Of a stretch of 19,161 nt of DNA, positions 1,923-18,672 are shown piece after piece (within the stretch, counting starts at the first letter, position 1; each line of letters begins with the position of its first letter). A program made the translations under genes and the position numbers. This DNA comes from an uncultured Gammaproteobacteria bacterium (GTDB lineage: Bacteria; Patescibacteriota; Patescibacteriia; Patescibacteriales; JAGXOH01). The notes beneath the pieces were generated by a model. The model was not told the origin of the DNA. It worked only from the letters and a program-made list of their open reading frames with translations, and did no database searches. The stretch covers positions 4,423 through 23,583 of the forward strand of contig CAZPEL010000015.1 of assembly GCA_964585585.1 (NCBI GenBank), given 5' to 3'.

Positions 1923-2020
1923 GATATTGGATACTTGTTATTAGATATTGGACACAGTGGGATGATCTACCAATCACTTTTGGCTATTGACTAATTACCA
2001 ATATCAAATATCCAATATCA
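1923..2020. repeat. Heptamer-repeat palindromic intergenic element, copy 1: (GATATTG-like)x4-5, 47-bp unique core, (CAATATC-like)x3; its right end overlaps the last codons and stop of the ACD gene
   Basis: Read directly: gatattggatacttgttattagatattgg ... accaatatcaaatatccaatatc. Arms are reverse-complementary. The element starts 11 bp from the murJ ATG. Confidence 0.7.
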
Positions 2021-4078
2021 ACTTCTTCCAATAATCCTCACATCCACCGCGAGGCAACTGTTTTTTTGAACAAATAAGGGATTGATGTCCAATTCCTGAA
2101 TATCTTGATTCTGTCTGGCTAACTTGCCCAAATTGACCATAGCCCGGGCCAGGCCGTCTATATCATAACCGGATCCTCCCCTAACTCCCCGCAAAACCGG
2201 ATAAGCTTGCAGATTTTTTATAGCTTGTTTGGCTCGAGTCTTACAGACATCATCCGCTTCGGTTTCTATATCCCTTAGAACCTCGGTATAAATTCCTCCC
2301 CAACCCACCATAATAATAGCCCCGAAGGACTGGTCCCGTTTAAATCCCAGGATCATTTCCATGCCTTCCTGTACCAAGGGCTGGGCCAGGCAATAACCCT
2401 TATCACCGAATCGTTTTTGCATATCTTTAAAAGCGGTCTTGGCCTCTTTTTCCGATTTTAAACCCACCGCCAAGGCCTTCTCTTCGGTTTTATGCACTAT
2501 TTCCCGTCCGGCCATTTTCAAGGCCAAAGGATACTTTAACTTGGCCAGATCCCTGGATGTTTCCACAATCCCGGTCTCCACCGTCGGTATGCCATATTCT
2601 TTTAACAGGTTCAAACTCTCCAAAAAATCCCAGTGCCGACTCTCTCCTTTGATATTTTTCTCGGCTGAATATTTATAGGGTCGCAGATTCTTTCTTTTAT
2701 CCTGGTAATCGGAAAATCTGGCCAAACAAGAAACGGCCTGCCCCGGATAAGAAAAATCCGCCACCCGATTTTGTTTGAATTTCTTTCTGGCCGGAGCCAG
2801 GGAATCGCCACCGATAAAACTAGTGAGAATGAACTTATCAGGATTAGTAGAGGCGACTCGATCGATGATGGTAGCTGTTTTTTCTATTTCTGTGGCGGTT
2901 TGCGGAGTTAAAAGGACCAGAATATTAGAAGCTTGGCCCTTTTTTACGGCCGTCTCCAGGGCCTTTTTGTATCTTTGGCTGTCCGCATCGCCCAAAATAT
3001 CCAAGGGGTTATGATAAGCCGTTAATTCCGGCAGGTCTTTTTTTAAATAATTACTCAAGCGGGAAGGGAAGGCGGGCAGATCAAGATCGAACCGATCCAA
3101 TTCATCCACGGTTGTGACCAAGGGACCGCCGGCATTGGAAATAATGTAGATATCCCTGGGCCGGGCCTGCTCGCTGACCTTTCGGCCGGCTCTTACCTGT
3201 AAAAACTTGATCATATTGAAAAGCTCCTCCAGATTGTCCACTACTATAGCTCCGCTTCTTTTCAGGCCGGTGGCCACGGCTTGCTGAGAACCGGCCAAAC
3301 TCCCGGTATGCGAGATTGTGGCCTTGCTACCGGCCTCGGTTCGTCCGGCCTTCAATATCACCACCGGTTTGCTTCGAGCCAATCGGGACACCTTTTCCAT
3401 AAACCTCTTGCCCCTGGCTATTTCCTCCAGATAAGCCACTACCACTCCCACTTTTTCATCCTCGGCAAAATGTTCAAAAAAATCAACCTCATCCAGAACG
3501 GTCTTATTGCCCAAACTAACAAAATACTCGAGATCCACGTTCTCTTGGCGACTCCAATCAAAAAAAGCGCTACCAATGGCCCCGGATTGGGAAATAAAAG
3601 CTATGCCGGCGCGACTCGGCCCCGAAGAGGTCTCAAAATCGGCAAAAGTGGCGTTGATCCTTTTATTGGTATTGATCAAACCTAAACAATTGGGGCCCAA
3701 AATATTAAGATCATTTTCCCGGGCTATCTGCCGCAGCTTTTCCTCTCTTTTTTTTCCTTCCGGGCCGGCCTCGGAAAAACCGGCGCTTATAATGATTATA
3801 TTTTTCACTCCTCGGGAAGCGCAGCTCTCCACTACCGAATTCACGAATCGGGCCGGAATAATAATAATAGCCAGGTCCACTTGGCCTGTTATTTCGGACA
3901 CATCCTTATAAGCGGTCAACTTCCCTATTTTTTTATGCTTGGGGTTGACCGGGTACAATTTGCCCCGAAAACCGGACTTTTGAATATTGTCCAAAACCTG
4001 CCACCCCAATTTATTCTTATTCGAGGACGCCCCCACCACCGCAATGGAGTTGGGATTTAATAAATTCTTTAGATCCAT
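2018..4078 (-). CDS. ADP-forming acyl-/acetyl-CoA synthetase (NDP-forming, fused alpha+beta: CoA-binding, succinyl-CoA-synthetase-like and ATP-grasp domains)
   Basis: N-terminal CoA-binding motif SIAVVGAS...LYPVNPK. Central ligase-CoA region ISQSGAIGSAF. C-terminal ATP-grasp segment LKEYGIPTVETGIV. No GNAT domain, so not Pat. The track start is TTG at 4084; the likely ATG is at 4076-4078 (MDLKNLL). Confidence 0.8.
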   Translation of the reverse strand: MDLKNLLNPNSIAVVGASSNKNKLGWQVLDNIQKSGFRGKLYPVNPKHKKIGKLTAYKDVSEITGQVDLAIIIIPARFVNSVVESCASRGVKNIIIISAGFSEAGPEGKKREEKLRQIARENDLNILGPNCLGLINTNKRINATFADFETSSGPSRAGIAFISQSGAIGSAFFDWSRQENVDLEYFVSLGNKTVLDEVDFFEHFAEDEKVGVVVAYLEEIARGKRFMEKVSRLARSKPVVILKAGRTEAGSKATISHTGSLAGSQQAVATGLKRSGAIVVDNLEELFNMIKFLQVRAGRKVSEQARPRDIYIISNAGGPLVTTVDELDRFDLDLPAFPSRLSNYLKKDLPELTAYHNPLDILGDADSQRYKKALETAVKKGQASNILVLLTPQTATEIEKTATIIDRVASTNPDKFILTSFIGGDSLAPARKKFKQNRVADFSYPGQAVSCLARFSDYQDKRKNLRPYKYSAEKNIKGESRHWDFLESLNLLKEYGIPTVETGIVETSRDLAKLKYPLALKMAGREIVHKTEEKALAVGLKSEKEAKTAFKDMQKRFGDKGYCLAQPLVQEGMEMILGFKRDQSFGAIIMVGWGGIYTEVLRDIETEADDVCKTRAKQAIKNLQAYPVLRGVRGGSGYDIDGLARAMVNLGKLARQNQDIQELDINPLFVQKNSCLAVDVRIIGRS

Positions 4079-4120
4079 AAACAAGTAAATGAATTATTGA
4101 TGAAAAACTCGAAAAAACGA

Positions 4121-5209
4121 TCAACCACCGATATTTTTGAACATAGGCATACCGTTGTCCGGATTGGTCGGGACATAGATGGTTCCCTCCCGGTTTTCCA
4201 AATTCTTGATGTACAGATACTGTAAATAATTCGGGGTTAAGCTTTCGTTGATTATTCTTTGGGATTCCTTTTGCCCTTCGGCCTCAATGATCTTTCTCTG
4301 TTTCTCTTTTTCTTCTTTTTGCAGGACAAAATCCATTTTCTTGGCCTCCTGCTCCGCCTGCAATTTCTCTTCAATGGAATTGGCTAATTTGGGAGGTAAT
4401 TTTACATTTCGCAGTAAAGTTTCCTCCATTACTACCCCGCGGGGCTCCAATTTTTCTTTTAATTCTTCCATTATTCGGTCACTGGCCTCTTTTCTTTTGT
4501 CGGAATAAATAACCTTGGCCTCATATTGAGCTATGATCTTTCTAATAGTGCTCCTTATAGCCGGACGAATTATTTTTTCCTCGTAATTCAATCCCACATC
4601 TTCATAAACATCAGAGGCCCTGTCTTCCTGCAAATGATATAGAATGGTTATGTCCAAACTTATATCCAGACCTTCTTTACTTAAAGCGGTAATAGCATCC
4701 GGTCCGCGCTTTTCCCCCTCGCCCTCGGTACTGCTCATAGTATAATCATTGGTCCGAATACTCATCTTGGTCACCCGGGCCAAGGGAATGACCAAATGAA
4801 AACCGGACTGCATCTCCTTGTCCTTAACCCGTCCGAATAAGGAATAAACACCGGTCTCCCCGGCCTCTACTATAACTATGGAAGCGGCGAAAAGCCAGGC
4901 CAAAAGTATAACCACCACTACTGTGGCAATAAGCTTTTTAAGATGCTTGCCTTGTTTTAATTTGTCCATATCAATGGTTTGAGACATATTTTTGGAAGAT
5001 CCGGCCTCAAAGGAATTTTGAGTGAAGAGATCTTTTATATTAAAATTTTTAAATATTCGGTCCATCTGGGCCTCACTTAGCTTTCTATAACCCCAAACGG
5101 CCAAACCGGCCAAAATAAAAAAAGGAATGATCCTGCCGCCGGTCATGGCTATAAGGAGAATCGCTAAAATGATAATAAAGGGCAGATTTTGAGCCAATCT
5201 ATTATTCAT
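4121..5209 (-). CDS. SPFH/band-7 (stomatin/prohibitin/HflKC-like) membrane protein with N-terminal TM segments and a C-terminal coiled coil
   Basis: SPFH core VIVEAGETGVYSLFGRVKDKEMQSGFHLVIPLARV...; KE-rich coiled-coil tail; hydrophobic N-terminus. Confidence 0.8.
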   Translation of the reverse strand: MNNRLAQNLPFIIILAILLIAMTGGRIIPFFILAGLAVWGYRKLSEAQMDRIFKNFNIKDLFTQNSFEAGSSKNMSQTIDMDKLKQGKHLKKLIATVVVVILLAWLFAASIVIVEAGETGVYSLFGRVKDKEMQSGFHLVIPLARVTKMSIRTNDYTMSSTEGEGEKRGPDAITALSKEGLDISLDITILYHLQEDRASDVYEDVGLNYEEKIIRPAIRSTIRKIIAQYEAKVIYSDKRKEASDRIMEELKEKLEPRGVVMEETLLRNVKLPPKLANSIEEKLQAEQEAKKMDFVLQKEEKEKQRKIIEAEGQKESQRIINESLTPNYLQYLYIKNLENREGTIYVPTNPDNGMPMFKNIGG

Positions 5210-5224
5210 ATTTTACTTTAAAAC

Positions 5225-5416
5225 TTATTTCCGTGGATCAGGGGATTTATCAACCACTAATATAACTATACCAATAAAAACCCAGCCAATCAATATCCAA
5301 TTAATATTAATATAGGCCAAAACCAACCGAGGCCAAACAAGCTCCAGGCCGGTAAAAATAACTAAAGCGCCGGTCAGGACATAGAATGTTTCTTTTAAAA
5401 AAGAAATATAAAACAT
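5225..5416 (-). CDS. Small two-TM membrane protein, about 63 aa (possible NfeD-like/partner of the SPFH protein)
   Basis: Hydrophobic ORF 16 bp upstream of the SPFH gene. The track ORF starts at a TTG inside repeat copy 2. ATG alternatives are at 5458 and 5416; 5416 was chosen because it lies outside the repeat. Confidence 0.4.
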   Translation of the reverse strand: MFYISFLKETFYVLTGALVIFTGLELVWPRLVLAYININWILIGWVFIGIVILVVDKSPDPRK

Positions 5417-5426
5417 ATAACAATTC

Positions 5427-5496
5427 GATATTGGATACCGGATATTGGAAATGGTCATAGTGGCGCCAATATCCAATATCTAATATCCAATATCCC
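5427..5496. repeat. Heptamer-repeat palindromic intergenic element, copy 2: GATATTG GATACCG GATATTG GAAATGG, 18-bp core, CCAATATC CAATATC TAATATC CAATATC
   Basis: Read directly. It starts 1 nt after the stop (5498-5500) of the 475-aa gene and ends 10 bp before the 5416 ATG. Confidence 0.7.
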
Positions 5497-5497
5497 A

Positions 5498-6925
5498 CTA
5501 ATTTATAAATTTTTCCCACAAAGTTTTTCCTTTTAATTTTATCTCTATTCTCTCTATCGCAACAGAATCCTCCGTCCCGTCCTCCGCTTTCAATCCGGGT
5601 ACAGAGATCATGAAATTATACTTATTATCTTCCTTATATCCGGCGGATAGATCAAATCCGGCAGTGGCTTTATATCGGCCTTTGTCCTTTTGGGGCGAGG
5701 TATACCGGGCCAAAACATATTTTATGTCCTGTTTATCCGGGTCAAAACCGGTATCCACCCGGGGAATAGAGGGATCCAACAAAGAATCCCGGCTAAAACT
5801 AAAAACTCCGTTGCTAAAAAGATCTATTCCGCCTTTCTCTAAATTTAACCGACATGGAGAACAATCCACTAAAGACAAGGCAAACCTTTTATAAGTTTGA
5901 TCGATATCCAATTTCTTTTCTTGGTCCTTATTTTTTACCTCCAAGGTCTGTAGATAAAGCGGGTCCAAAACTTTAGCGCTTAATTCATCGCCGGTTGTAT
6001 AAATCTTTTGTTCAAACTTCCCGGTGGTAGAGGCTAAACTGAGCTGGTTTATAAAAGCTAACTTTTTTTGGCCGGTCTTGATCTTTTCGGTTATTATGTC
6101 ATTTCCCGCTCTCACCTCGATCTTGTATACCCCCTCCGGCAACCCCGAGGCCTGTAAATTAACAGACCTGCTTGGCCGAGATCCGGCGACCCCCTTGCTC
6201 AGGCCGTCATCGGATAAATGGCGGGAATCGATTATTTTATCCCGAAAATACAAGCTTATATCCACCGGATCCTCGCCCTGCTCTTGGTTGATGTCCCGAA
6301 AAGAAAAATCAAAATCAAGTTTTTCCTGCTTGATATAAGTATAAAATTGATAATCCCCTCTCAAGTCCGTGTCCCAAACTTGCTCGGAGCTGGTAGCGGA
6401 ATAATTCGGGAGTACAAATTTATTGTCCAGATCATAATTATAGACCGCTATCTCTTGCACAGAAGGCGGATCACTTAAAAATTCATCTATGGAGGAGAAT
6501 TCTTTCTTTTTTTGCAAAAGCATCAGGTCGTCCCGGACCAAGGTGGACCAAGCTTGACTTAAGTCATCCAGGATCTTGTTCTGCAAGGGCTTGGTCTTAT
6601 ACCTCCACAACTGGCCGTCCACCAACAGACCGGCCTCTATTATGGGGAAATCCCGATTCTTATAAAAAAGGATTATCTCCGCAGTTTGAAAATTTCTGGG
6701 AGTCCGTAAAGAAAAATACACCGGATTGCCGATTATCCTTTTGCCCTTCTCCTTGACCCGGGTTTCCGGACTGATCCTGCCTATAAAATCATTCCTTTTC
6801 TCCAAATTTGTGCTGTAAGTGATCTCTCCGGAGGGAATCACCCCCCGCCACAAAAGAAAAAGCACTACCAGGCCCAATAAAGACCATAAAATAATCCTTA
6901 ACTTTTTTATGGGAAAATTTAACAT
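5498..6925 (-). CDS. Hypothetical secreted or membrane-anchored protein (N-terminal signal-anchor, 475 aa), no recognisable domain
   Basis: Long clean ORF starting with an ATG. The N-terminus LRIILWSLLGLVVLFLLW is TM/signal-like; the rest is hydrophilic. Confidence 0.6.
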   Translation of the reverse strand: MLNFPIKKLRIILWSLLGLVVLFLLWRGVIPSGEITYSTNLEKRNDFIGRISPETRVKEKGKRIIGNPVYFSLRTPRNFQTAEIILFYKNRDFPIIEAGLLVDGQLWRYKTKPLQNKILDDLSQAWSTLVRDDLMLLQKKKEFSSIDEFLSDPPSVQEIAVYNYDLDNKFVLPNYSATSSEQVWDTDLRGDYQFYTYIKQEKLDFDFSFRDINQEQGEDPVDISLYFRDKIIDSRHLSDDGLSKGVAGSRPSRSVNLQASGLPEGVYKIEVRAGNDIITEKIKTGQKKLAFINQLSLASTTGKFEQKIYTTGDELSAKVLDPLYLQTLEVKNKDQEKKLDIDQTYKRFALSLVDCSPCRLNLEKGGIDLFSNGVFSFSRDSLLDPSIPRVDTGFDPDKQDIKYVLARYTSPQKDKGRYKATAGFDLSAGYKEDNKYNFMISVPGLKAEDGTEDSVAIERIEIKLKGKTLWEKFIN

Positions 6926-6972
6926 TTTGCTCTTATAGTGATAAAATTAAAAAAGAATTATAAATTTTTTCA

Positions 6973-6991
6973 TTCGCGGAAAAATCGCGAA
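6973..6991. promoter_or_regulatory. Palindrome TTCGCG-gaaaaat-CGCGAA, 48 bp upstream of the 5498..6925 gene start, in a divergent promoter region
   Basis: Read directly. The same TTCGCGAA core lies in the hairpin at 1-28. Confidence 0.25.
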
Positions 6992-7087
6992 ATATACCCC
7001 GTAAAATTACCACGGGACACGACACGGACTAATGCGGAATTATTAAAGTAGAAAACATATACACTACAATAAAATATACTGACAAAT

Positions 7088-7127
7088 ATTCGGAGCATTC
7101 GGATACTCATTCGGAGCATTCGGATTA
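7088..7127. promoter_or_regulatory. Tandem direct repeats upstream of maf: two 17-bp copies of ATTCGGAGCATTCGGAT (four ATTCGGA units)
   Basis: attcggagcattcggatactcattcggagcattcggat read directly. The repeats end 8 bp before a TATAAT at 7135-7140, and the maf ATG is at 7174. Confidence 0.4.
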
Positions 7128-7134
7128 TTTATAT

Positions 7135-7140
7135 TATAAT
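7135..7140 (+). promoter_or_regulatory. Candidate -10 hexamer TATAAT for maf (no clear -35; the direct repeats sit where a -35 would be)
   Basis: TATAAT lies 34 nt upstream of the maf ATG. Confidence 0.3.
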
Positions 7141-7173
7141 TATAAAAGATATTTTAATTTCTTCCAATAAAAT

Positions 7174-7749
7174 ATGAAAAATATAATTTTAGCTTCCCAA
7201 TCGCCCCGGAGACAACAACTTTTAAAACAGATAGGGTTAGAGTTTGAGGTGGTTTCCGGTGATTATCAAGAGAATTTCAGTTTGAAACTACCGCCCCGGG
7301 AGATGGCCCAATTATTCTCCCAGGAAAAGGCCCGGGCGGTGGCGGAAAAATGCCCGGAAAACATCATCATCGCCGCCGATACTCTGGTGATATCCAGAGG
7401 ACAGGTGTTGGGCAAGCCCCAAACCCCGGCCAAAGCCAAGCAAATGCTTAATCAAATAAACGGCCAAAAGATCTCCTCTGTAAGCGGCGTCACCATACTG
7501 GAAACCCCGGAACGCCGCGAACATACCCAAATAGTGGAAACCGACATCCATATGGCCCGATTCTCGGAAACGGAAATAGATAACTATATAGCTACCGGCG
7601 AAACCCTGGACAAGGCGGGAGCTTTTGCCCTCCAAGGAGTGGGAGCCCTGCTTATAGAAGGCATAAACGGCAGTTATTCCAATGTGGTGGGTCTTCCCCT
7701 TTGGGAAACCTATCAAATGCTAAAAAAATTCAATATAAAAATAATATGA
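7174..7749 (+). CDS. maf: Maf-like nucleoside triphosphate pyrophosphatase / septum formation protein
   Basis: MKNIILASQSPRRQQLLKQIGLEFEVVSGDYQE...IIIAADT...GKP are signature Maf motifs; length 191 aa. Confidence 0.9.
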   Translation: MKNIILASQSPRRQQLLKQIGLEFEVVSGDYQENFSLKLPPREMAQLFSQEKARAVAEKCPENIIIAADTLVISRGQVLGKPQTPAKAKQMLNQINGQKISSVSGVTILETPERREHTQIVETDIHMARFSETEIDNYIATGETLDKAGAFALQGVGALLIEGINGSYSNVVGLPLWETYQMLKKFNIKII

Positions 7750-8009
7750 AGAAAGCTATAATAAATCCCAAAAATCTCGGTCTCTCCGGAGGGCTTATCT
7801 GGGGAGGGTCTTTATTTCTGCTAACCCTGATAGCAACAGCCACCGGCTACGGAGAAGAATTCTTGCAACTCATCTCCGCTCTTTATCCGGGCTACAGCAT
7901 TAGCCCGGCCGGTAGTTTATGGGGTTTGGTCCTGGGCTTTATAGACGGCTTTGTGGCCTTGTATCTATTGGCGATACTCTATAATTGGCTTAATCGTAGG
8001 AAGAAATAG
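7746..8009 (+). CDS. Small hypothetical two-TM membrane protein (87 aa), start overlapping the maf stop (ATGA)
   Basis: ATG at 7746 overlaps the maf TGA at 7747-7749. Hydrophobic segments LIWGGSLFLLTLIATA and LWGLVLGFIDGFVALYLLAIL. The track ORF begins at an upstream TTG. Confidence 0.5.
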   Translation: MKKAIINPKNLGLSGGLIWGGSLFLLTLIATATGYGEEFLQLISALYPGYSISPAGSLWGLVLGFIDGFVALYLLAILYNWLNRRKK

Positions 8010-8055
8010 ATATTAACTTTGAGCTTGTAAGTGAGTTGCGCGGTTTTTAAACAAT

Positions 8056-8090
8056 AAAAAATATTCCGGTTGGAGCCGGAATATTTTTTA
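8056..8090. terminator. Bidirectional intrinsic terminator between converging genes: AAAAAATATTCCGG-ttggag-CCGGAATATTTTTT
   Basis: 10-bp stem (AATATTCCGG/CCGGAATATT) with a 6-nt loop, A-run before and T-run after, so it works on both strands. It sits between the small + strand gene and the rpoC 3' end. Confidence 0.6.
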
Positions 8091-8125
8091 TATCCTAAAA
8101 GCTAACAATTATAAACTAAAAGCTA

Positions 8126-11100: not shown

Positions 11101-12091
11101 CGTCCAGGGCCACCATGGGACGCAGATCCGGCGGGATCACCGGAACATGGGTCATTATCATCCATTCCGGCCGAATATCATTGGAATACAAACTCTTAAA
11201 GACCCTTAATCTCTTCATTATCTTTTCCCTCTTGGAATCAATAGCGTCCTTGAGTTGTTTTTCCAGGTCCTCAATGGTCTGGCCCAGATCTATTTTTTCC
11301 AAAACGGTCCGAATGGCCTCGGCTCCGATGCCGGCGTCAAAAATATGGCCGTATTTTAAACTCAAATTCTGGTAGGACTCCTCGGAGATGACCAACAAGG
11401 GTTTTAGTTCCTTTAATTCCTTCAGGGATTCGTTAAAGGTTTTTTGCAGTTCCTCTAATTTCTGCTCCTTGGATTCGGTTAATTTGTCTACCTCTTTTTG
11501 AACCTCTTCCTCGGCCTGTTTGTTGGTCTTACCCTCGTCCAATAATTGGTTTTTCTTGGCCTTGGCATCCTTGATCTGTTTGTTAAAATCCTTGTTTATC
11601 CCCCTTCTCTTTTCCTTATATTCACTCTTGATCTGTTCAATAGTGGACTCCTTTAACTCCTCATCCACCTCGGTCACGATAAAACTGGCAAAATAGATCA
11701 CCCTTTCCAGGGAATGCATGCCCAAGTCCAAAAGCAGACCCAATTTGGAGGAAAGTCCCCGCAAAAACCAAATATGGGAACAAGGGGTTTCCAGGGCGAT
11801 GTGCCCCATTCTCTCTCTTCGGACAATACTTCGGGTAACCTCCACGCCGCATTTGTCACAAACGATCCCCTTGTAGCGGATCTTTTTGTACTTACCGCAA
11901 TAACATTGCCAATCCTTGGTGGGGCCGAAGATCTTTTCGCAAAACAAGCCGTCCTTTTCCGGTTTTTGAGTCCTATAATTAATGGTTTCCGGCTTCGCCA
12001 CTTCCCCGTGGGACCAGGCCAGAACATCATCCGGCGAGGCCAACCTTAATCTAATGGCGTCAAAGTCGGTTGTTTTTATTGGATTGATCAT
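8126..12091 (-). CDS. rpoC: DNA-directed RNA polymerase subunit beta' (RpoC), 1321 aa with lineage-specific insertions
   Basis: Zn-binding N-terminus CYCGKYKKIRYKGIVCDKCGVEV; NADFDGDQM catalytic motif; trigger-loop/bridge regions. Two long K/E-rich insertions (after the Zn finger; in the trigger-loop region). Confidence 0.97.
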   Translation of the reverse strand: MINPIKTTDFDAIRLRLASPDDVLAWSHGEVAKPETINYRTQKPEKDGLFCEKIFGPTKDWQCYCGKYKKIRYKGIVCDKCGVEVTRSIVRRERMGHIALETPCSHIWFLRGLSSKLGLLLDLGMHSLERVIYFASFIVTEVDEELKESTIEQIKSEYKEKRRGINKDFNKQIKDAKAKKNQLLDEGKTNKQAEEEVQKEVDKLTESKEQKLEELQKTFNESLKELKELKPLLVISEESYQNLSLKYGHIFDAGIGAEAIRTVLEKIDLGQTIEDLEKQLKDAIDSKREKIMKRLRVFKSLYSNDIRPEWMIMTHVPVIPPDLRPMVALDGGRFAASDLNDLYRRVINRNNRLKQLIELNAPEVICRNEKRMLQEAVDALIDNSARQSKTVVASTGQKRQLKSLADSLKGKQGRFRQNLLGKRTDYSGRSVIVVNPKLNLDQCGLPKTMALELFKPFVISKLIQNEIVHNVKSASRFIESGADEVWDLLEQVVSDSYVMLNRAPTLHRLGIQAFKPILIEGKAIQIHPLVCPAFNADFDGDQMAVHVPLTKEARGEAENLILSTRNLLKPATGEPIVAPNQDIVWGAYYVTNIKDEDEQKEDKDLKAFTDTYEAKLAYENYYIGMQEPIRVRLSEDSGLVRTTVGRVIFNEILPEKLRFVNRVIKKGELKGLVRDCLRFYEEEETVEFIDKLKNKTFEIITKSGWSFGLGDLVDFEEKDKLIQETNDSVEEVEEQFAEGLLTESERSSKIIELWSNAKERVTDIIQEGLTSDSPVYSMVESGARGSWGQLTQILGMKGLVISPAGDIIELPVKGNFKKGFGVLEYFISTHGVRKGLSDTALRTANAGYLTRRLVDVSQDVIVTEEDCGDTEGVAITKKESEETGEDFYKRIMGRYLAKDLKNSQGKTLLKKGEIITTSMIEEWQKNEEEIEEATIRSLLSCQVGRGVCRKCYGYDLGNNRPVEVGTPVGIVAAQSIGEPGTQLTMRTFHAGGVAGGEDITQGLPRVEEIFEAKPPKKKAIMADVDAKVKVEMGKKVIKDESGKEVTVDNPQTKLLKLFYKGTESEKFYFSDAIEKAKLKAKDNSQADPKVEVSVKDEDKVSKGTELFSVGGDKIKAKKSGTIEVKDKFIKVNSESEKVEEITVTKGTDILVNDGDKVEVGQKLTEGSFDLHQLYRLRNRLEVQKYILKEIQYVYSSQGQPLNDKHVEIIARQMFSRYLVADPGDTELLSGEVVEQAVLDRANKKSKNSAKATQLLSGITKASLTTDSFLSSASFQETARVLVDAGLSGKIDYLEGLKENVIIGCLIPAGTGYKGKKKRANY

Positions 12092-12113
12092 AAAATTTAT
12101 TTAAATTAAGAAT

Positions 12114-15100
12114 TTATGAATTTGATTCGGATCCCTCTTCCTTTTCCTCTTGTTTCTCTTCCGACTTTTCCTCTGCTCGGACTTCTTTCGAGCTTGTTTC
12201 TTGTTCCTGCGGCTCTCCTCCCAATAATTCCACATTCATACCCAAACCTTTTAATTCCCGGGTCAACACATTAAAGGATTCCGGAACATTGAGTTTGGTT
12301 ATCTCCTCGCCCTTGATAATGGATTCGTAAGCGCTGCTTCGGCCGGGCACATCGTCCGACTTAATAGTCAATATCTCCTGCAGGGTGTGGGCGGCTCCGT
12401 AACCCTCCAGGGCCCAAACCTCCATCTCTCCGAACCTCTGGCCTCCGAACTGGGCCTTACCTCCCAGGGGCTGCTGGGTGATCAAGGAATAAGGACCGAT
12501 GGATCTTTGGTGCATCTTGTCCTCGACCATGTGGTTTAATTTCAACATATATTTATAACCGACCACTACTCGATTGTCATAGGGACGGCCGGATTTACCG
12601 TCATACAAAGTAACCTTGCCATCCTCGGGTAGTCCGGCTCGGGACAGTTCTTCCTTGATCTTTTTCTCCGGAATTCCGTTCAGGGGCGGTGTAGCCACTT
12701 TATAACCCAATTTCTCCGCGGCAAAGCCCAAATGGGTCTCCAGGATCTGACCCAAATTCATACGGGAAATAACACCTAAAGGAGATAAAATTATATCCAC
12801 CGGAGTGCCGTCCTCTAAGTAGGGCATATCCTCTTCCGGCACCACTTTGGAGATAACACCCTTGTTTCCGTGTCTGCCGGCCACCTTGTCACCCACCTGT
12901 ATCTTCCTGAGGTTGGCCACTGATATCTGAATGGATTTCAAAACTCCGGCCGGCAATTTATCTCCGTTTTCCCGGGAAAATATCTTGATATCCACTACCT
13001 TGCCGTGCTCTCCGTGTTCCAAATACAGAGAAGAATCCCGGACATCCTTGGCTTTTTCGCCGAATATGGCCCGGAGCAACTTCTCTTCCGCGGACAATTC
13101 GGTCTCTCCCTTGGGGGTGATCTTACCTACCAGGATATCACCGGAAGAAACCTCGGCTCCGATCCTGATTATTCCGTCCTCATCCAAATTCTTTAATTTT
13201 TCCTCGCTAATATTGGGTATATCATTGGTTATCTCTTCCGGGCCCAACTTAGTATCCCGAACATCCACGGTGTAATTTTCTATATGAATTGAGGAATAAA
13301 CCTCGTTCTTAACCAATCTATCGGAAATTATAATAGCATCCTCGTAATTGTATCCTTCCCAGGTCATAAAAGCGACCAGAGCGTTCTTACCCAAAGCCAA
13401 TTCCCCGTTTTCGATACAAGGGCCGTCGGTCAAGGCATCGCCCTTCTTGATCTTATCTCCCACATTGACCACCGGTCTTTGGTTCATACAAGTGGAGGAA
13501 TTGGAACGGGCGAATTTACAAAGATAATAATCCTTTACCTCCCCCTTCTTATTCTTGACCGCGATATTGGAAGCATCTGATTTGATCACTTCCCCATCCT
13601 CTTCGGCCAATATCATATGGCCGGAATCCTGGGCCGCTCGGCCCTCGACTCCGGTTCCCACAATCGGGGAATCACTGGTTACCAAAGGCACGGCCTGCCG
13701 TTGCATGTTGGTCCCCATCAAGGTTCTTTGCCCGTCATCGTGTTCCATAAAAGGGATCAGAGAGGTGGCGATGGAAATGATCTGGTTAGCGGCCACTCCG
13801 ACGTAATCAATATAACAGACATCCATAGTGGTGGGTTGACCGAACTTTCTGACCTCGTGATTGTCCACCATGAAATAACCGTTATTGTCCACCGGCACAT
13901 TGGAAGAAGCTGTAATTTGCTTTTCCTCTTCAAAAGCGTCCAAAAGGACTATTTCCTGGGTTACCCTGGGTGTGATCGGTATCAAAACCCTGTTATCCAC
14001 TTTATCCTTAAGTTCTTTGATGGTCTTTTTATCCAATTTTTTTCCGGCCTTGGCGATTATCTTGCCGGTCTTTTTGTCCGGCACATCCTCATACAAAACA
14101 CCGTCGCCGGCCTCGTCCAGTTTTCTGACCTCCTTAACATCCTCTCTTAGTACCTCGCCCTCCAGGGCCGGATCGCTTACTTTAAGGTCATGCAAAACCT
14201 TTCTATAAGAAGTTTGTAAAAATCCATAACTATTGATCCGGGCATAACTGGCCAGATGTCCGACCAAACCGATATTAGGACCTTCCGGGGTGGCAATGGG
14301 ACAAATTCGGCCGTAATGGGTGGTATGTACGTCACGCACTTCAAAACCGGCCCTTTCCCGGGTCAATCCTCCGGGGCCCATGGCGGATAACCTTCTTTTG
14401 TGTTCCAGTTCCGCCAAAGGATTGGTCTGGTCCATGAACTGGGATAATTGCGAAGACATGAAAAACTCCCGGACCACGCTTATAACCGGCCGGGCATTGA
14501 TCAATTTATTCGGAGTTAAGGTGGTGAAATCGGCTGTACTCATTCGATCCCGGATGATCCTCTGCATTCGGGCCAACCCCACTCGAAATCGATTCTGGAT
14601 CAATTCTCCGATGGCTCTGACTCTTCGATTTCCCAAATGATCAATGTCATCCTCCGGGTCTCCGGTAATATTCAATCGGATCACCTCCTTGATAATGGAG
14701 ATCAGGTCTTGTTTTCGCAAAACCCGGTTCTCCTTGGAGTTGTCTATATCAAAACCGAATCTTCGGTTTAGTTTATACCTACCTACTCGACCGAAGTCAT
14801 AACGATCGAATCGGAAAAACATGGAGTGGATCAATTGCCTGGCGTTGTCGGTAGCGGCGAAATCTCCGGGCCGGATCTTTCGATAAACCTCTTTCAATCC
14901 TTCTTCCTCGTTAGTGGCGGCGTCCTTTTTGATAGTGGATTCAATGTAGCTTAATTCTCCTTTTTTACCGGCCTCTTCGTTGACTATGTCCACATCTTTG
15001 AACAAATTTATGATCTCTTCGTCCGTGGAATAACCGAAAGCCCTGAGCAAAGAGGTAATGGCCACCTTTCTTTTTCTGTCTATTCTAACCCAGACCACTT

Positions 15101-15629
15101 TATTGACATCGGTCTCTATTTCCAACCAAGCACCCCGGTTGGGGATAACCTTGGCTCCGTAATATTTCTTGCCCTTGATGTAGTTGGCGTTGAAGATCAC
15201 ACCCGCGCTTCTGATAAGCTGGGATACGATAGCTCTTTCAATGCCGTTGATAATAAAAGTTCCGTTCTGGGTCATTAAAGGAAAATCTCCTAAAAAAACC
15301 TCTTGTTCCGTGTTCTCTTTTTGTCTCTTGTTGATAAGCTCCACTTTAGCCCGCAAAGGAGCTTCATAAGTAATGTTTTTTTCCCGACTTTCCCTTTCAT
15401 TGAATTTGGGCTCGTCCAAATAATAATCCTTGAAATAGAGTTCCAGATCGCGCCCGATAAAATCGGTTATAGGGGAAATCTCTTCAAACAACTCTTTTAA
15501 TCCTTCCCGAATAAACCAATCATAAGAATCCTTTTGAACCTCGATCAGGTCCGGCATGGGTATGGTCTCCTTGAATTCCGTAAAGAACTGACGCGAGGTA
15601 GTGGGTGAGGTGGCTTTTTTATTGGTCAT
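12114..15629 (-). CDS. rpoB: DNA-directed RNA polymerase subunit beta (RpoB), 1171 aa with an acidic C-terminal tail
   Basis: Conserved RpoB blocks throughout (PDLIEVQKDSYDWF, GRHGNKGVISKV, and others). ATG at 15627-15629. Confidence 0.97.
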   Translation of the reverse strand: MTNKKATSPTTSRQFFTEFKETIPMPDLIEVQKDSYDWFIREGLKELFEEISPITDFIGRDLELYFKDYYLDEPKFNERESREKNITYEAPLRAKVELINKRQKENTEQEVFLGDFPLMTQNGTFIINGIERAIVSQLIRSAGVIFNANYIKGKKYYGAKVIPNRGAWLEIETDVNKVVWVRIDRKRKVAITSLLRAFGYSTDEEIINLFKDVDIVNEEAGKKGELSYIESTIKKDAATNEEEGLKEVYRKIRPGDFAATDNARQLIHSMFFRFDRYDFGRVGRYKLNRRFGFDIDNSKENRVLRKQDLISIIKEVIRLNITGDPEDDIDHLGNRRVRAIGELIQNRFRVGLARMQRIIRDRMSTADFTTLTPNKLINARPVISVVREFFMSSQLSQFMDQTNPLAELEHKRRLSAMGPGGLTRERAGFEVRDVHTTHYGRICPIATPEGPNIGLVGHLASYARINSYGFLQTSYRKVLHDLKVSDPALEGEVLREDVKEVRKLDEAGDGVLYEDVPDKKTGKIIAKAGKKLDKKTIKELKDKVDNRVLIPITPRVTQEIVLLDAFEEEKQITASSNVPVDNNGYFMVDNHEVRKFGQPTTMDVCYIDYVGVAANQIISIATSLIPFMEHDDGQRTLMGTNMQRQAVPLVTSDSPIVGTGVEGRAAQDSGHMILAEEDGEVIKSDASNIAVKNKKGEVKDYYLCKFARSNSSTCMNQRPVVNVGDKIKKGDALTDGPCIENGELALGKNALVAFMTWEGYNYEDAIIISDRLVKNEVYSSIHIENYTVDVRDTKLGPEEITNDIPNISEEKLKNLDEDGIIRIGAEVSSGDILVGKITPKGETELSAEEKLLRAIFGEKAKDVRDSSLYLEHGEHGKVVDIKIFSRENGDKLPAGVLKSIQISVANLRKIQVGDKVAGRHGNKGVISKVVPEEDMPYLEDGTPVDIILSPLGVISRMNLGQILETHLGFAAEKLGYKVATPPLNGIPEKKIKEELSRAGLPEDGKVTLYDGKSGRPYDNRVVVGYKYMLKLNHMVEDKMHQRSIGPYSLITQQPLGGKAQFGGQRFGEMEVWALEGYGAAHTLQEILTIKSDDVPGRSSAYESIIKGEEITKLNVPESFNVLTRELKGLGMNVELLGGEPQEQETSSKEVRAEEKSEEKQEEKEEGSESNS

Positions 15630-16062
15630 ATTTTTAAATCAATTTAAAAACAAACGATTAATTAAATATTTGAAATAAAGATAAAGGTTTCGGAGAACTT
15701 GGGAAAGGCGGAAAAACAAAAAACAACAAAAAAATCTCAATACCTGATTCAATGGCTTGAGTTTTTTAGTGGAAGATATTTATCTATTTCTTTTTACTCA
15801 CTTGAAAAAAATTTAGTTTTTAAATCGGGCTAAAATTTTTGTTCAACTGTTATCCACTTGTTGTTAAAATGATTCTTTATATTAACAATAATTATTGGAT
15901 ATGTCAAGAATAAAGAATAAAGATCTTTTTTTAAAAATTTTTAGCTTATTTTAGATAAACTAAACCTGATCTTAATTTTTTAACCACAACTTATCCACAA
16001 CAAAAAAATCGAGATCCGATCTCTAATCTCTTTAACTCATACTTTTAACGAGTCTTGCTCCA
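15630..16062 (-). promoter_or_regulatory. 430-bp AT-rich non-coding region upstream of rpoB (promoter and long leader for rpoBC)
   Basis: No ORF of 60 aa or more; very AT-rich; lies between the Mur ligase stop and the rpoB start. Confidence 0.5.
15980..15999 (+). promoter_or_regulatory. Tandem DnaA-box-like 9-mers: TTAACCACA (8/9) then TTATCCACA (9/9, consensus DnaA box); a third, TTATCCACT (8/9), is at 15850-15858
   Basis: Read directly. TTATCCACA is the canonical DnaA box. All three are in the same orientation within about 150 bp. Confidence 0.35.
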
Positions 16063-17463
16063 TTAATGATCGATTTGTTGTAACTCTTCCTTTACTACTT
16101 GTCTGTCGTCCCAGGGGACTTTTCCCCCTTTGGCCGTGCAAATAGATTGCTCACTTCCTTTACCGGTAATAATAATTATATCATCTTTTTCCGCCAGCTG
16201 CAAAGCTTTTCTTATGGCCTCCCGCCTATCCATTATCTTGAACAGATCATGCTCCTTGTGTTTGCCGGCATTCTCGGCTCCGGTGGCCACTTGATCTATG
16301 ATAAGTTTGGGGTCTTCATCATAAGGGTCCTCATTGGTAACAATGACCACATCCGCTTTTTCTCCGGCTATTCGACCCAATTGGGGCCGACGGGATACAT
16401 CTCGGCCACCTCCGGCCGAACCCAGGACATGGACTATTCTCTCGTGGGGGATCAGGTCCAAAGTGGAGTACAGCTTTTCCATAGCATGGGGCTCAAAGGC
16501 ATAATCGACTATTATCCCGAAGTCCTGACCTTGTTCTATTTTTTCCAATCTTCCGGCTATCCCCTTGATCTTTCGCAGTCCTTTTTTAATGGCCTCTATC
16601 TCTATTCCCTGGGACAAACAAACACAAACGGCGTTCATAGCATTTTGGACATTAAATTCCCCCAAAATGGGCAACCTGACCTCCTGGCCCTCGACCAAGA
16701 AATTATAGCCCCGGTCCTGATACCGGATCTTTTTATAATCAATGATCCGAACATGAGGAGACGGCTCTTCCGCCCCGCCTTTATCATATTGATAAGTAAG
16801 CTTTTCCTCGGCCCAAAACTCGGAAAAATAATCGGAATGTTCATCATCCCCGTTAACAATAATGGTCTTTTTCACCCGGTTCAGGTCTATCTTTTTTATC
16901 TCCGAGGATGTCTTTCTAAGCTTCCGATCTTCATCCACATATTTAGTTTTGCCTCTTTTTAAGTGCCGAAACAACTCACCCTTGGCCCGCTTATAATTCT
17001 CAAAACCGCCATGGGACTCGATATGTTCCGGATACAGACCGGTAAAAACCAAAATGTCATAATTTATAAACCTGTGCCGGAACTGCCGCATTCCCTCGCT
17101 GGTACTTTCCACTATGGCATACTGACAACCGTTGTTCACCATATCCTTTAGGATCTTTTGGGTAAAAAACCTGCCCACCATGGTCATCTTCTTGTCATTC
17201 AACCACTCTTTTTCCCCATTCCCAAACAAAGTAGTGGAGGTATAACCCACTTTAAAACCGGCCTCTTCCAGGGTTTTGGCTATCAGATACACGCTGGAGG
17301 TCTTGCCGGTGGTTCCCGTGACGCCGATCACGATCAACTTTTCACTTGGACGCCCGGAAACCAAAGCGGCCAACCAGCTCAAGAAAAAATGATAAGCCGG
17401 CTGTAAATACCGGAATATCTTAGTGGGGATCAATCTCTTTATTTTAGCCAGTAGTTTGTCCAT
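16063..17463 (-). CDS. Mur ligase family protein, MurE-like (UDP-N-acetylmuramoyl-tripeptide synthetase-like); lacks the usual about 100-aa N-terminal domain and has a short hydrophobic N-terminus
   Basis: P-loop GVTGTTGKTS; central-domain motifs ESTSEG, DILVFTGLYPEHIESHGGFENYKRAKGELF, VDYAFEPHAMEKL (DYAHNP-like) and a C-terminal DPYDEDP...DRREAI...ITGKGSE. This is a Mur ligase fold. The specific substrate cannot be assigned from sequence alone (MurE, MurT and CapB-like remain possible). Confidence 0.75.
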   Translation of the reverse strand: MDKLLAKIKRLIPTKIFRYLQPAYHFFLSWLAALVSGRPSEKLIVIGVTGTTGKTSSVYLIAKTLEEAGFKVGYTSTTLFGNGEKEWLNDKKMTMVGRFFTQKILKDMVNNGCQYAIVESTSEGMRQFRHRFINYDILVFTGLYPEHIESHGGFENYKRAKGELFRHLKRGKTKYVDEDRKLRKTSSEIKKIDLNRVKKTIIVNGDDEHSDYFSEFWAEEKLTYQYDKGGAEEPSPHVRIIDYKKIRYQDRGYNFLVEGQEVRLPILGEFNVQNAMNAVCVCLSQGIEIEAIKKGLRKIKGIAGRLEKIEQGQDFGIIVDYAFEPHAMEKLYSTLDLIPHERIVHVLGSAGGGRDVSRRPQLGRIAGEKADVVIVTNEDPYDEDPKLIIDQVATGAENAGKHKEHDLFKIMDRREAIRKALQLAEKDDIIIITGKGSEQSICTAKGGKVPWDDRQVVKEELQQIDH

Positions 17464-17477
17464 AATACATAAAATTC

Positions 17478-17602
17478 AAAAATCAAAATGCAAAACTCAA
17501 AATGACAGAGAAAAGATCAAAATTAATCAATTTTTTGTTTTGATCTGTAATTTTGAGTTTCCTGCCTTGCCGGCAGGCAGATGAGATTTGATTTTTGCAT
17601 TT
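17478..17602. other. Highly structured spacer between femAB-like stop and Mur ligase start: 9-bp stem AGATCAAAA/TTTTGATCT, GC hairpin CCTGCC-ttgcc-GGCAGG, 10-bp long-range inverted repeat AAATGCAAAA/TTTTGCATTT, followed on the sense strand by a U-rich tract
   Basis: Read directly. On the minus (sense) strand the AGAUCAAAA hairpin is followed by UUUCUCUGUCAUUUUGAGUUUUGCAUUUUGAUUUUUG. This could be a terminator, an attenuator or a leader. Confidence 0.35.
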
Positions 17603-18583
17603 CTAGATTTTTCTCCTAACATACCTAAGCATCTTATAAACATTGTACCATTTTTTAGCAAAAACCAAATCCCGAGTTCCGGGGTAATTCATCTCCATTC
17701 CGCCAAAACCTTTTTTGAATCTGGTTACTCCGGGCCATTTATCAGGATCGATCCCATAAAAATCATAATATCGGGACCCTCTGTTTCGGGCCTCTTGAAT
17801 GGCGCTCCATTGCAAGGCATAAGGAGCCATTACCTTTCTATGCTCATACGAAGAGGCCCCGTGCATATACCAAGCCACCTTACCGAAAAAAGCGAATAAA
17901 CCGGCGGCTACAACTTCTCCTCTGTATTCCGCCAGTTTTAATTTTATCATATCACCGCCCTGTTCCAATATTCCTTGATAATAGGACCTGGGGTGGGTGC
18001 GGAAATTATCCCTCTGTCCGGTCTGCTCCATTAACCGCCAAAATTGCTCAAAATCATCCTTGGTGCCATCTCTCGTTGTTACCCCTTTTTTAAAAGCTAA
18101 GCGAATATTATATCTGGTTTTCTGATGCATCTGTTTCATCAGATCCTCTTCCGGTCTCCCCAGGTCCAAAACCAAAGTTTTGCCGGGCTGGATCTCTATA
18201 GTGGGCTCTACTTTCCATTCCAGGTCCGGAGGAAGGTCAAAATTGGACTCCAAGCGAAGAAATATTGCTTTTTCTTTTTGGGCCAGATCTTCGATCTTTT
18301 TTAACAATCCGATCAAAATCTCTTCTTTGTTGCTAACATTCCTATCCAAAACCGGCCCGCGGGGGCAATAAAAATAACCCCTTTTCAGGGGCGTGGGTTT
18401 TAGGACTAAACCGGCACCGGCCACCAATTCCCCTGTTTCGCTCTCTACTCCTAAACGAAAAACTTTCCCGGACTGCTCGGCCTGAAAATCCAACCACCTA
18501 CTCGATTGCAAAAATTCGGGAAAACGGCGATTCTTTAAAAAATCATCCCACCTATTACTATCTTGTATCTCTACTATTTTCAT
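17603..18583 (-). CDS. FemAB/FemX-family aminoacyltransferase (peptidoglycan interpeptide-bridge formation-like, tRNA-dependent GNAT-fold)
   Basis: N-terminus W..FL....FLQSSRW..F....G...R.G is typical of FemX/FmhB proteins; about 326 aa. Adjacent to a Mur ligase. Confidence 0.65.
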   Translation of the reverse strand: MKIVEIQDSNRWDDFLKNRRFPEFLQSSRWLDFQAEQSGKVFRLGVESETGELVAGAGLVLKPTPLKRGYFYCPRGPVLDRNVSNKEEILIGLLKKIEDLAQKEKAIFLRLESNFDLPPDLEWKVEPTIEIQPGKTLVLDLGRPEEDLMKQMHQKTRYNIRLAFKKGVTTRDGTKDDFEQFWRLMEQTGQRDNFRTHPRSYYQGILEQGGDMIKLKLAEYRGEVVAAGLFAFFGKVAWYMHGASSYEHRKVMAPYALQWSAIQEARNRGSRYYDFYGIDPDKWPGVTRFKKGFGGMEMNYPGTRDLVFAKKWYNVYKMLRYVRRKI

Positions 18584-18603
18584 ATGATATAACTTTTAAA
18601 AAA

Positions 18604-18672
18604 ATATTGGATATTGGATATTTGATATTGGTCACAATATGATTAATATCCAGTATCCAATATCTAATATCA
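18604..18672. repeat. Heptamer-repeat palindromic intergenic element, copy 3: ATATTGG ATATTGG ATATTTG ATATTGG, 15-bp core, CCAGTATC CAATATC TAATATC
   Basis: Read directly. It ends 1 nt before the ruvA stop (18674-18676) and starts 21 bp after the femAB-like ATG (18581-18583). Confidence 0.7.

Follow-up and report, generated by a model that had tools for sequence, protein, structure and literature searches.

Heptamer-repeat palindromes at gene junctions of a Patescibacteria contig and their likeness to intervening sequences of bacterial rRNA

Intervening sequences (IVSs) of about 100 nt that hold no open reading frame (ORF) are found in Salmonella. The 23S rRNA IVS of Coxiella burnetii carries an S23p ORF and has a stem formed by 28-bp terminal inverted repeats, its GACAGAT heptamer repeats vary in number between strains, and RNase III excises it with a cut where the first repeat begins (PMC4990558). 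IVSs occur sporadically and are regarded as selfish, they are tolerated because RNase III cuts them from the transcript, and S23p has no known function (PMC4990558). S23p ORFs are also present in rRNA insertions of bacteria of the candidate phyla radiation (PMC11270868). Here we describe three palindromic elements made of heptamers that lie between protein-coding genes in a stretch of 19,161 nt from an uncultured member of the Patescibacteria (contig CAZPEL010000015.1, positions 4,423–23,583; the whole stretch is called the window in the following). Our best reading, to which we give a probability of about 0.55, is that they are palindromic insertions of the IVS kind that lack an ORF and have stems made of heptamer repeats, which would be transcribed along with the neighbouring genes, cut by RNase III and selfish or near-neutral.

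Correia/NEMIS elements of Neisseria and enterobacterial ERIC sequences are imperfect palindromes of 70–150 bp in transcribed intergenic regions, and RNase III or RNase E processes the hairpins of their RNA, altering mRNA stability. Their sequence is fixed, their terminal repeats are defined, they duplicate the target (TA in the case of Correia), and they are restricted to one lineage only. Heptamer arrays, including the cyanobacterial short tandemly repeated repetitive sequences (STRRs), are a recognised class for which no function has been found (PMC4692102; Rehm et al. 2015). The arrays of GGGAATC in Xanthomonas and of GGGGA(C/T)T in Nostoc are about 90% intergenic and lie near the end of the upstream ORF, mostly between co-directional genes, and the GGGAATC arrays form 70–75 convergent inverted pairs per genome with the G-rich strand first on both strands (PMC4692102). 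Direct repeats of TAACTGA form arrays a few nucleotides from start codons in Beggiatoaceae, Cyanobacteria and Bacteroidetes, and their patchy phyletic pattern suggests horizontal spread (MacGregor 2015, PMC4679880).

Architecture and common descent of the three elements

A sequence-only reading of the window had pointed out three heptamer palindromes, and the sequence itself, Tandem Repeats Finder, an inverted-repeat search and shuffled controls all confirm them at their places (Table 1). Each is an imperfect palindrome of 70–100 bp with the heptamer units in phase within each arm, around a core of 12–41 nt without an ORF. The repeat search of the window found inverted arms of 26–32 nt with a complementarity of 78–85%, and Tandem Repeats Finder lists arrays of period 7 for every arm but one, five out of six, the exception being copy 1 with its left arm. 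Allowing up to two mismatches, GATATTGGATA matches 36 times in the window, compared with 8.6 ± 2.9 matches in dinucleotide shuffles; none of 200 shuffles attained 36, and 22 of the 36 matches are inside the three elements. The proposal that these imperfect palindromes between genes form a real family with a periodicity of 7 bp was thereby borne out. The elements consist of head-to-tail, in-phase 7-nt units in at least two to three copies like other heptanucleotide tandem arrays, they have terminal inverted repeats like IVSs and MITEs (miniature inverted-repeat transposable elements), and as in the convergent pairs of Xanthomonas two arrays lie near each other, the G-rich strand coming first whichever strand is read.

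When the three copies are aligned, their four left units, a core motif and the right units all fall in line, with a core that is 28 nt longer in copy 1. Directly behind the fourth left unit all three copies carry GG(A/T)CA(C/T)A(G/A)T, which refutes the initial view that the cores are not conserved. Because four left-arm units and a non-repeat core motif align in all of them, the three copies are homologous. The 11-mer of copy 2, GGTCATAGTGG, is also present in the core of the ruvA–femAB element of a close relative (L177), that is, at another junction and between arms of AATAGTA units, and save for this element and duplicates of the window it is found nowhere else in 1.04 Mb of fetched loci. 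Such elements have their descent in common via a non-repeat core and differ in their heptamer arms. The extended right end common to copies 1 and 3, which had been assigned to the element, turned out to be coding sequence, namely the ends of ADP-forming acetyl-CoA synthetase (ACS; ..DVRIIGRS before the stop) and of RuvA (..ALRNIE before the stop). The RuvA-end stretch does not belong to the element, since it is unchanged in a relative carrying an element with different arms.

With maf on the plus strand and every other gene on the minus strand, the window holds murJ, the ACS gene, genes for an SPFH protein, a 63-aa membrane ORF and a 475-aa ORF, maf, rpoC, rpoB, a Mur ligase gene, femAB and the 3′ part of ruvA. 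The relatives found with RpoB place the organism among the Patescibacteria. The stop codons upstream of elements 1 to 3 are at 2018–2020 (a TGA within the last unit of element 1), 5498–5500 and 18674–18676, and with corrected starts the next ATGs are at 1911 (MurJ), 5416 (63-aa ORF) and 18583 (FemAB). The elements hence begin 0–2 nt past a stop and finish 10–20 nt (11, 10 and 20 nt, respectively) ahead of an ATG, in agreement with the 0–4 nt and 10–21 bp estimated before. All three lie between protein-coding genes rather than inside a 23S or 16S rRNA helix, and the window gave no rRNA match. Exact-protein look-ups for FemAB and the 475-aa ORF returned no match.

Table 1: Positions and structure of the heptamer palindromes of the window and of motifs within them.
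Feature	Position	Strand	Structure	Context
Element 1	1923-2020	.	left arm 1923-1950 (GATATTG GATACTT GTTATTA GATATTG), core 1951-1991, right arm 1992-2019 (TAATTAC CAATATC AAATATC CAATATC)	ACS gene–murJ gap
Element 2	5427-5496	.	left arm 5427-5454 (GATATTG GATACCG GATATTG GAAATGG), core 5455-5466, right arm 5467-5494 (CAATATC CAATATC TAATATC CAATATC)	475-aa ORF–63-aa membrane ORF gap
Element 3	18603-18672	.	left arm 18603-18630 (AATATTG GATATTG GATATTT GATATTG), core 18631-18643, right arm 18644-18671 (TAATATC CAGTATC CAATATC TAATATC)	ruvA–femAB gap
Core motif, copy 1	1950-1960	+	GGACACAGTGG	directly after fourth left unit
Core motif, copy 2	5453-5463	+	GGTCATAGTGG	identical 11-mer in L177 ruvA–femAB element core
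Core motif variant, copy 3	18630-18640	+	GGTCACAATAT	from three-way alignment
Second heptamer palindrome	17464-17602	.	unit AAAA(N)TC / GA(N)TTTT	fills femAB (stop 17603-17605)–Mur ligase (ATG 17463) gap
GC-rich mini-hairpin	17560-17581	.	TCCTGCCTTGCCGGCAGGCAGA, 22 nt	nested in one arm of the 17464-17602 palindrome

Occurrence in close relatives and across phyla

Using RpoB we fetched three relatives with the gene order ruvA-femAB-Mur ligase-rpoB-rpoC, namely L177 (RpoB 88%), L178 (RpoB 85%) and L180 (RpoB 83%). Only the contig of L178 runs on to ACS and murJ, and those of L177 and L180 cover two junctions. Between ruvA and femAB, where the window has its GATATTG palindrome, L177 has a palindrome of (AATAGTA)n and (TACTNNT)n, L180 an (NNTTCAA)n array and L178 an empty gap of 38 nt. 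Between femAB and the Mur ligase gene, L177 carries a palindrome of the same AAAACTC type as the window and L180 another heptamer palindrome, and the genes of L178 are 2 nt apart. L178 is in fact without an element at all four junctions, including that of ACS and murJ and the one after its 468-aa ORF. Two relatives that are more distant and keep the gene order also have empty sites: in L130 the ACS stop and the murJ start abut as TGAAATG, element 1 being missing, and in L128, which is without element 2, the small membrane ORF follows directly on the 475-aa ORF homologue. The orthologous junctions, which had been suggested as a check for mobility, are thus occupied in some relatives and empty in others (L130, L128, L178), and in being sporadic among close relatives the elements behave like IVSs. 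As relatives with the same gene order have empty or different junctions, the elements are not conserved promoters or terminators; going by these comparisons, their gain, loss or replacement is quick.

The TGA stop of the ACS gene is formed in the outermost heptamer of element 1 (GTTGATATTGG, window 2018–2035), and before the stop the protein ends with ..VRIIGRS in the window, ..VRVIT in L130 and ..VRIISRE in L178. On account of this stop and of the differing C-termini, element 1 may have replaced the original C-terminus and stop of ACS.

A scan of metagenomes with the SPFH protein gave only five loci. In assemblies of the same population elements 1 and 2 are almost unchanged, and element 2 is identical in four other assemblies except for two single-nucleotide polymorphisms (SNPs) in L123. 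The sole SNP within an arm (L123, about position 1185, compared with 5427–5496 of the window) changes GATATTG of the sense strand into GATACTG and turns a U.G pair of the predicted hairpin into C-G. The number of units is identical among the strain contigs of the window; it varies between relatives and at the locus of L139–L142 described below.

The exact pattern GATATTGGATA-N18-48-TATCCAATATC occurs at at least 115 places in the one-genome-per-species contigs of GTDB, for which we estimate a chance expectation of 1–5. The proposed search for further copies has given at least these 115 matches, in a scan that is biased by its pattern, as the core of 18–48 nt leaves out cargo-bearing forms by design. 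Among the matches listed, to which the numbers in the rest of this paragraph also refer, the GATATTG palindrome is present in about ten phyla with up to nine copies per genome. They belong to Anaerolineae, Caldilineae and Chloroflexia, to Saprospiraceae, Cyclobacteriaceae and other Bacteroidota, to isolates of Pseudidiomarina, Idiomarina and Shivajiella, to Patescibacteria (Falkowbacteria, Doudnabacteria) and to Thermoanaerobaculia, Pirellulales, Gemmatimonadales, Desulfobacterales, Calditrichota and Krumholzibacteriota. The arrays run on in register past the seeds with variants such as GGTATTG, GAGATTG, GGGATTG, GATACTG and GATATTA, and the outer units keep positions 4–6 (ATT) best. As the outer arms are complementary to 48% in register versus 38% at a shift of 7 nt (p = 8e-8), the palindromy is a true one beyond composition. 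Gene calls at the at least 115 loci were crude (stop-to-stop frames, greedy choice), and the many elements found ‘inside’ ORFs of high-GC genomes were treated as artefacts of these frames. Of the flanking gene pairs, 38 are co-directional, 6 convergent and 5 divergent, no excess of convergent or divergent pairs being evident. For 49 co-directional cases the median distance from the stop to the element is 17 nt and that from the element to the next ATG 36 nt. Here and in the window the elements are mostly intergenic and near ORF ends, as is typical for the STRR class. A separate scan of viral contigs for the palindrome gave only two matches.

A longer and well-conserved palindrome, TTGGACATTGGACATTCCTTGTTGGATATTGGATATTC..GAATATCCAATATCCAACAAGGAATGTCCAATGTCCAA, was seen in a part of the fetched loci (L027, L031, L035, L043, L055, L063, L068, L075, L084, L092, L095, L100 and L112). 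It frequently has inner GCTACG/CGTAGC and outer CTACG/CGTAG motifs and is common to metagenome-assembled genomes of Bacteroidota, Thermoanaerobaculia, Pirellulales and Desulfobacterales. In Caldithrix (L040:6990-8000) a palindrome of this type is repeated in tandem, in units of some 107 bp, on either side of a gene for a four-helix-bundle protein.

The arrangement and the diversity of heptamers were measured in the flanks of the fetched loci. Genomes carrying the GATATTG type also have palindromes of other units (ACTGATC, GCGTGAA, ATCGGGT, TGCGTAC, TAATAAG and others), and further units of the class, which has no conserved unit sequence, are TAGGGTG, TAGTCTG, GAGAACT, AACGTTC, AAAACTC and AATAGTA. 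In an unbiased scan the G-richer arm was the 5′ arm in 18 of 21 palindromes of other heptamers, one was neutral, and the two with a C-rich 5′ arm are both of the AAAACTC type of Patescibacteria. A stricter array criterion gave 106 G-then-C against one C-then-G arrangement, mostly the scan’s own seeds; it classed one window copy as G-then-C and listed the right arm only for the other two, their left units being read from the sequence.

The second heptamer palindrome of the window is of the AAAACTC type as well. Its collinear counterpart in L177 has no TCCTGCCTTGCCGGCAGGCAGA, and since the same element exists there without it, this mini-hairpin looks like a very small separate insertion. Behind an M48 peptidase gene L177 has a palindrome of the further unit ACGTAAC/GTTACGT (L177:2628-2702), giving at least three heptamer types within 15.7 kb of that genome.

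Four-helix-bundle genes within heptamer arrays, and further repeats of the window

Immediately upstream of murJ, a locus of Pseudidiomarina has a 117-aa ORF lying between a GATATTA/GATACTG array and the complement of that array. This ORF encodes a four-helix-bundle protein of the pentameric, Avd-like S23p type (TIGR02436, 116 bits; PF05635, 23S_rRNA_IVP) with a match to PDB 2GSC (Xanthomonas XCC0516) at E = 2e-22. The only two other four-helix-bundle ORFs in 0.82 Mb of loci are both within heptamer arrays. We then sampled the family by protein similarity alone from genomic contigs, 25 IMG/VR loci and eight isolate plasmids, whose sources include Nostoc PCC 7120, N. edaphicum (gene between nrdB and nrdA), Anabaena 90, Picosynechococcus (gene between cas10 and cmr3), Riemerella and Gemmatirosa. 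The 80-nt flanks of the 31 distinct loci were compared with those of 581 control ORFs from heptamer-rich loci. Of the 31 loci, 26 have flanks with 7 as the best period. Complementarity between the upstream and the downstream flank was seen in 15 loci compared with 4 of the 581 controls (Fisher p = 2.6e-18). In 19 loci a G-rich upstream flank goes with a C-rich downstream one, and in 2 loci it is the reverse. Genes for this protein are bracketed in this way across many phyla. The heptamer is particular to each locus (e.g. TAGGGTG/ACCCTAC, TAGTCTG/CAGACTA, GTAGGGA/TCCCTAC, TTGTTAG/CAACTAA and GGTTTAA/AACCTTA). At a locus with the gene between miaA and DAGK (L139–L142, about 1367–1440) four strains from metagenomes have different numbers of units in the right array (CAACTAA/GAACTAA, then CCCCTAA), which is direct evidence of slippage in 7-nt steps. 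The four-helix-bundle gene is the only recurrent cargo in the fetched loci and not a known transposase. In the searchable literature we found no paper stating that inverted heptamer arrays bracket S23p genes generally outside rRNA and none tying STRR-type repeats to S23p genes.

Two Pseudidiomarina species have a four-helix-bundle gene immediately upstream of murJ (L017:25-451 and L133:900-1390, in L133 between rpsT and murJ). Their flanking inverted arrays are wholly different (GATATTA/GATACTG in L017, GTTATTC/GTACGCT in L133), and the proteins are 51% identical. Four-helix-bundle genes also occur beside or inside CRISPR-cas operons (L170, L172, L173), next to cas4 in Pseudanabaena and Anabaena 90 and between cas10 and cmr3 in Picosynechococcus. 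The flanks in L170 are long arrays that are direct and not inverted, (AAAGCTA)16 and (AAAGCCA)10.

The window has three more repeat regions. Just downstream of murJ, at 113–186, lies an inverted repeat whose 23-bp arms (ATCAAAGATATGGGTTTTGTTAT ... ATAACAAAACCCATATCTTTGAT) match perfectly and are 28 nt apart, which had only weak Rfam matches to hairpin miRNA models. Closely following the rpoC stop (8126) on its downstream side, a 25-nt AT-rich inverted repeat at 8045–8100, 84% complementary and non-heptameric, probably serves as a terminator hairpin. Upstream of rpoB a 430-bp gap at 15630–16062 (about 35% GC) contains the short tandem repeats AAAAACA, AAGAATA and TTAACCACAAC and, on the minus strand, a promoter-like TTGACA-17-TAATAT.

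Interpretation and comparison with known systems

For elements that are ORF-less IVS-like insertions we infer how they are transcribed, cleaved by RNase III and spread as follows. The neighbouring genes are co-directional and probably co-transcribed, so the element would be transcribed along with the operon and its arms would pair to an interrupted duplex of about 20–30 bp. By analogy to IVSs this duplex would most likely be cleaved by RNase III, or it would at least block 3′ exonucleases, so that the polycistronic RNA would be segmented at the junction and neither cistron harmed. The element itself would be selfish or near-neutral, with a fast turnover via insertion, loss and slippage in 7-nt steps, and would occupy the only spots at which a compact operon can take up some 80 extra bp unharmed. 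Long RNA hairpins, as already expected from the sequence, are predicted on either strand for all three elements, with minimum free energies of -24 to -34 kcal/mol and z-scores of -3.5 to -7.4.

Several observations weigh against this reading. The longest unbroken helices of the sense strand are 12–15 bp, within composite stems of 20–23 bp with mismatches. Among 38 co-directional cases the sense strand folded better in 14 and the antisense strand in 24 (p = 0.44), and as the sense strand has no advantage, there is no signature of selection at the RNA level. The equal folding of both strands suggests that the symmetry is a property of the DNA, or at least that it is not shaped by tolerance for G.U pairs; G.U versus A.C asymmetry, which we had considered as a sign of RNA selection in sense versus antisense folding energy, showed no bias. 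Strain-level contigs are nearly free of polymorphism, and differing heptamers at one junction could equally reflect local turnover of arrays and not re-insertion. No consistent target-site duplication was found in the comparison with the empty sites of L130 and L178 (a possible TGA at copy 1 only, none at copies 2 and 3), and there is no transposase in the window or in the relatives. Finally, hmmsearch detected no gene for a four-helix-bundle protein either in the window or in its close relatives (L176–L180, about 60 kb), so that the link between ORF-less and ORF-bearing forms rests on architecture, polarity and, in Pseudidiomarina, a heptamer type common to both; it is architectural and not a demonstrated descent.

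A wider and more tentative idea, which we consider possible and still doubtful, is that all heptamer-array palindromes, from STRRs and the GGGAATC arrays of Xanthomonas to those of the window, belong to one undescribed and widespread system of mobile cassettes. Its full form would carry the S23p gene, with 23S IVSs as one landing site, the ORF-less copies would be non-autonomous, and the arms would be made or renewed by symmetric addition of 7-nt units at both ends. If true, this would explain why each element has its own heptamer, why the step is always 7 and why the G-rich arm is the 5′ one on both strands. Another reason for the step of 7, namely stop codons in all three frames, was rejected because pure (GATATTG)n contains no stop codon.

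The main rival of IVS-like insertions, unlikely in our view, is that heptameric simple sequence repeats form locally as a by-product of replication in short intergenic hairpins rich in AT, where slippage of the polymerase lengthens them by steps of 7 nt and template switching turns them into palindromes, with neither mobility nor function. Slippage has been put forward for such arrays by Mrazek 2007, as cited in PMC4692102 and PMC4679880. It fits the unit numbers, which differ between arms, between copies and at one locus between the strains L139–L142, and also the different heptamers of relatives at one junction and the many unrelated heptamers within the same genomes. It does not account for a non-repeat core motif that is common to elements at different junctions and in different genomes, nor for the all-or-none presence with abutting genes at empty sites (TGAAATG in L130, the 2-nt gap of L178). 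The strong polarity, with a G-rich 5′ arm in 18 versus 2 palindromes and in 19 versus 2 flank pairs around four-helix-bundle genes, and the specific association with this one gene family (p = 2.6e-18) also speak against it, as do genomes with extended arms that are not simple repeats.

Improbable to a higher degree are host regulatory hairpins that were selected in place as attenuators, terminators or mRNA stabilisers and tune the expression of the neighbours. The precise site behind stops (median 17 nt among the 49 co-directional cases listed), the strong z-scores of folding, the run of seven U (U7) on the sense strand after copy 3 and the change of U.G into C-G in L123 would all suit such a role. 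The close relative L178 has the same operon without any of them, however, and the missing sense-strand advantage, the orientation of the flanking genes (38, 6 and 5, without a convergent or divergent excess) and the heptamer periodicity, which such hairpins leave unexplained, argue in the same direction. As intrinsic terminators, a role that had been suggested initially, the elements were rejected: their stems are AT-rich and not GC-rich, copies 1 and 2 have no U-run, and the terminator scan picked none of the copies. Scans for promoter and terminator consensus sequences gave nothing convincing at any of the three elements, and Rfam at a permissive threshold yielded only miRNA hairpin models below threshold (28 bits versus a gathering score of 95).

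Still less probable are arrays of binding sites, on DNA or on single strands, for a cold-shock protein (Csp; about 7 nt per protein, with the Y-box core ATTGG) or for a ribbon-helix-helix protein. The ω protein of pSM19035 is a ribbon-helix-helix protein reading contiguous 7-bp heptads. ATTGG is formed at each junction of GATATTG units, the outer units keep ATT at positions 4–6 best, and Csp binds one heptamer per protein (reviewed in PMC4679880). The unit varies across the class and even between close relatives at the same junction, so a single sequence-specific reader cannot explain the arrays, and no candidate gene, in particular no rep or ribbon-helix-helix gene, is nearby; the initial idea of iteron-like arrays for a DNA-binding protein is therefore not supported. 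AYTG or Y-box ATTGG with Csp had been considered as a unifying motif, fitting GATATTG, STRR2, Nostoc GGGGATT and TAACTGA, and was dropped after unrelated heptamers had been found.

The weakest candidates, and very improbable ones, are repetitive extragenic palindromes (REPs) or their hairpin-forming doublets (REPINs), mobilised by a REP-associated tyrosine transposase (RAYT), and classical MITEs of an IS family, since conserved inverted arms around a less conserved spacer, an intergenic multi-copy occurrence and a multi-phylum subfamily (TTGGACATTCCTTGTTGGATATTGGATATTC..., inner GCTACG/CGTAGC, outer CTACG/CGTAG) that recalls GTAG-tagged REPs (cf. PMC3733652) stand against window arms that end with GATATTG and CAATATC, the sole GTAG lying inside the core of copy 1, against varying arm lengths and the missing target-site duplication and transposase, and against the absence of a RAYT gene from the 19 kb window and about 60 kb of relatives and of an autonomous transposase partner with the same ends from the fetched loci. 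The REP-like or MITE-like nature suggested at first is accordingly not upheld.

With IVS-like insertion elements as the preferred reading, this work may link two small puzzles that are about 30 years old, one of them the purpose of the S23p or 23S-IVS protein and of IVS elements. In the loci gathered here S23p genes, within rRNA and elsewhere, usually have inverted heptamer arrays as flanks, and ORF-less copies of like build reside inside operons across Patescibacteria, Chloroflexota, Bacteroidota and Gammaproteobacteria. Such elements can provide stop codons and so give host proteins another C-terminus, which is suggested by the ACS gene, they may partly account for the short public contigs of the window organism, and they can be mistaken for regulatory RNA.

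Whether the family had been described before has a divided answer: the GATATTG sequence, for which only one unrelated paper on yeast came up, and its link to four-helix-bundle genes were not found in the searchable literature, and the class of heptamer arrays is known from STRRs, the convergent heptamers of Xanthomonas and IVSs (PMC4692102, PMC4990558). Compared with REPs, bacterial interspersed mosaic elements (BIMEs) and REPINs, the elements are likewise short multi-copy extragenic palindromes at gene junctions that give hairpins in mRNA; they differ in having arms that are direct heptamer arrays and not small palindromes, no GTAG/CGTC tag at the arm ends and one heptamer palindrome type common to about ten phyla. 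Correia/NEMIS and ERIC elements lack the internal 7-nt periodicity. TAACTGA arrays are close in sequence to ACTGATT/ACTGATC arrays within the loci fetched here, but they are nearly all direct, with one inverted in 170 (PMC4679880), whereas the arrays here are palindromic. With the Xanthomonas, Nostoc and STRR arrays the elements share tandem 7-nt units, here in numbers that differ between arms and copies, an intergenic position and convergent pairs. The units of the window are AT-rich in a host of the Patescibacteria and cannot form G-quadruplexes, so that a G-quadruplex reading does not apply, its copies are related by descent through a shared non-repeat core, and PMC4692102 reports no link to S23p genes. 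IVSs differ in sitting in helices 9, 25 or 45 of 23S rRNA and not between protein genes, they can carry an ORF that the window elements do not have, and excision by RNase III is assumed here by analogy only. They are nevertheless the closest in design, with terminal inverted repeats that form a long stem round a loop in which the S23p ORF is optional, tandem heptamers in the stem region of the Coxiella IVS and a sporadic occurrence among close relatives.

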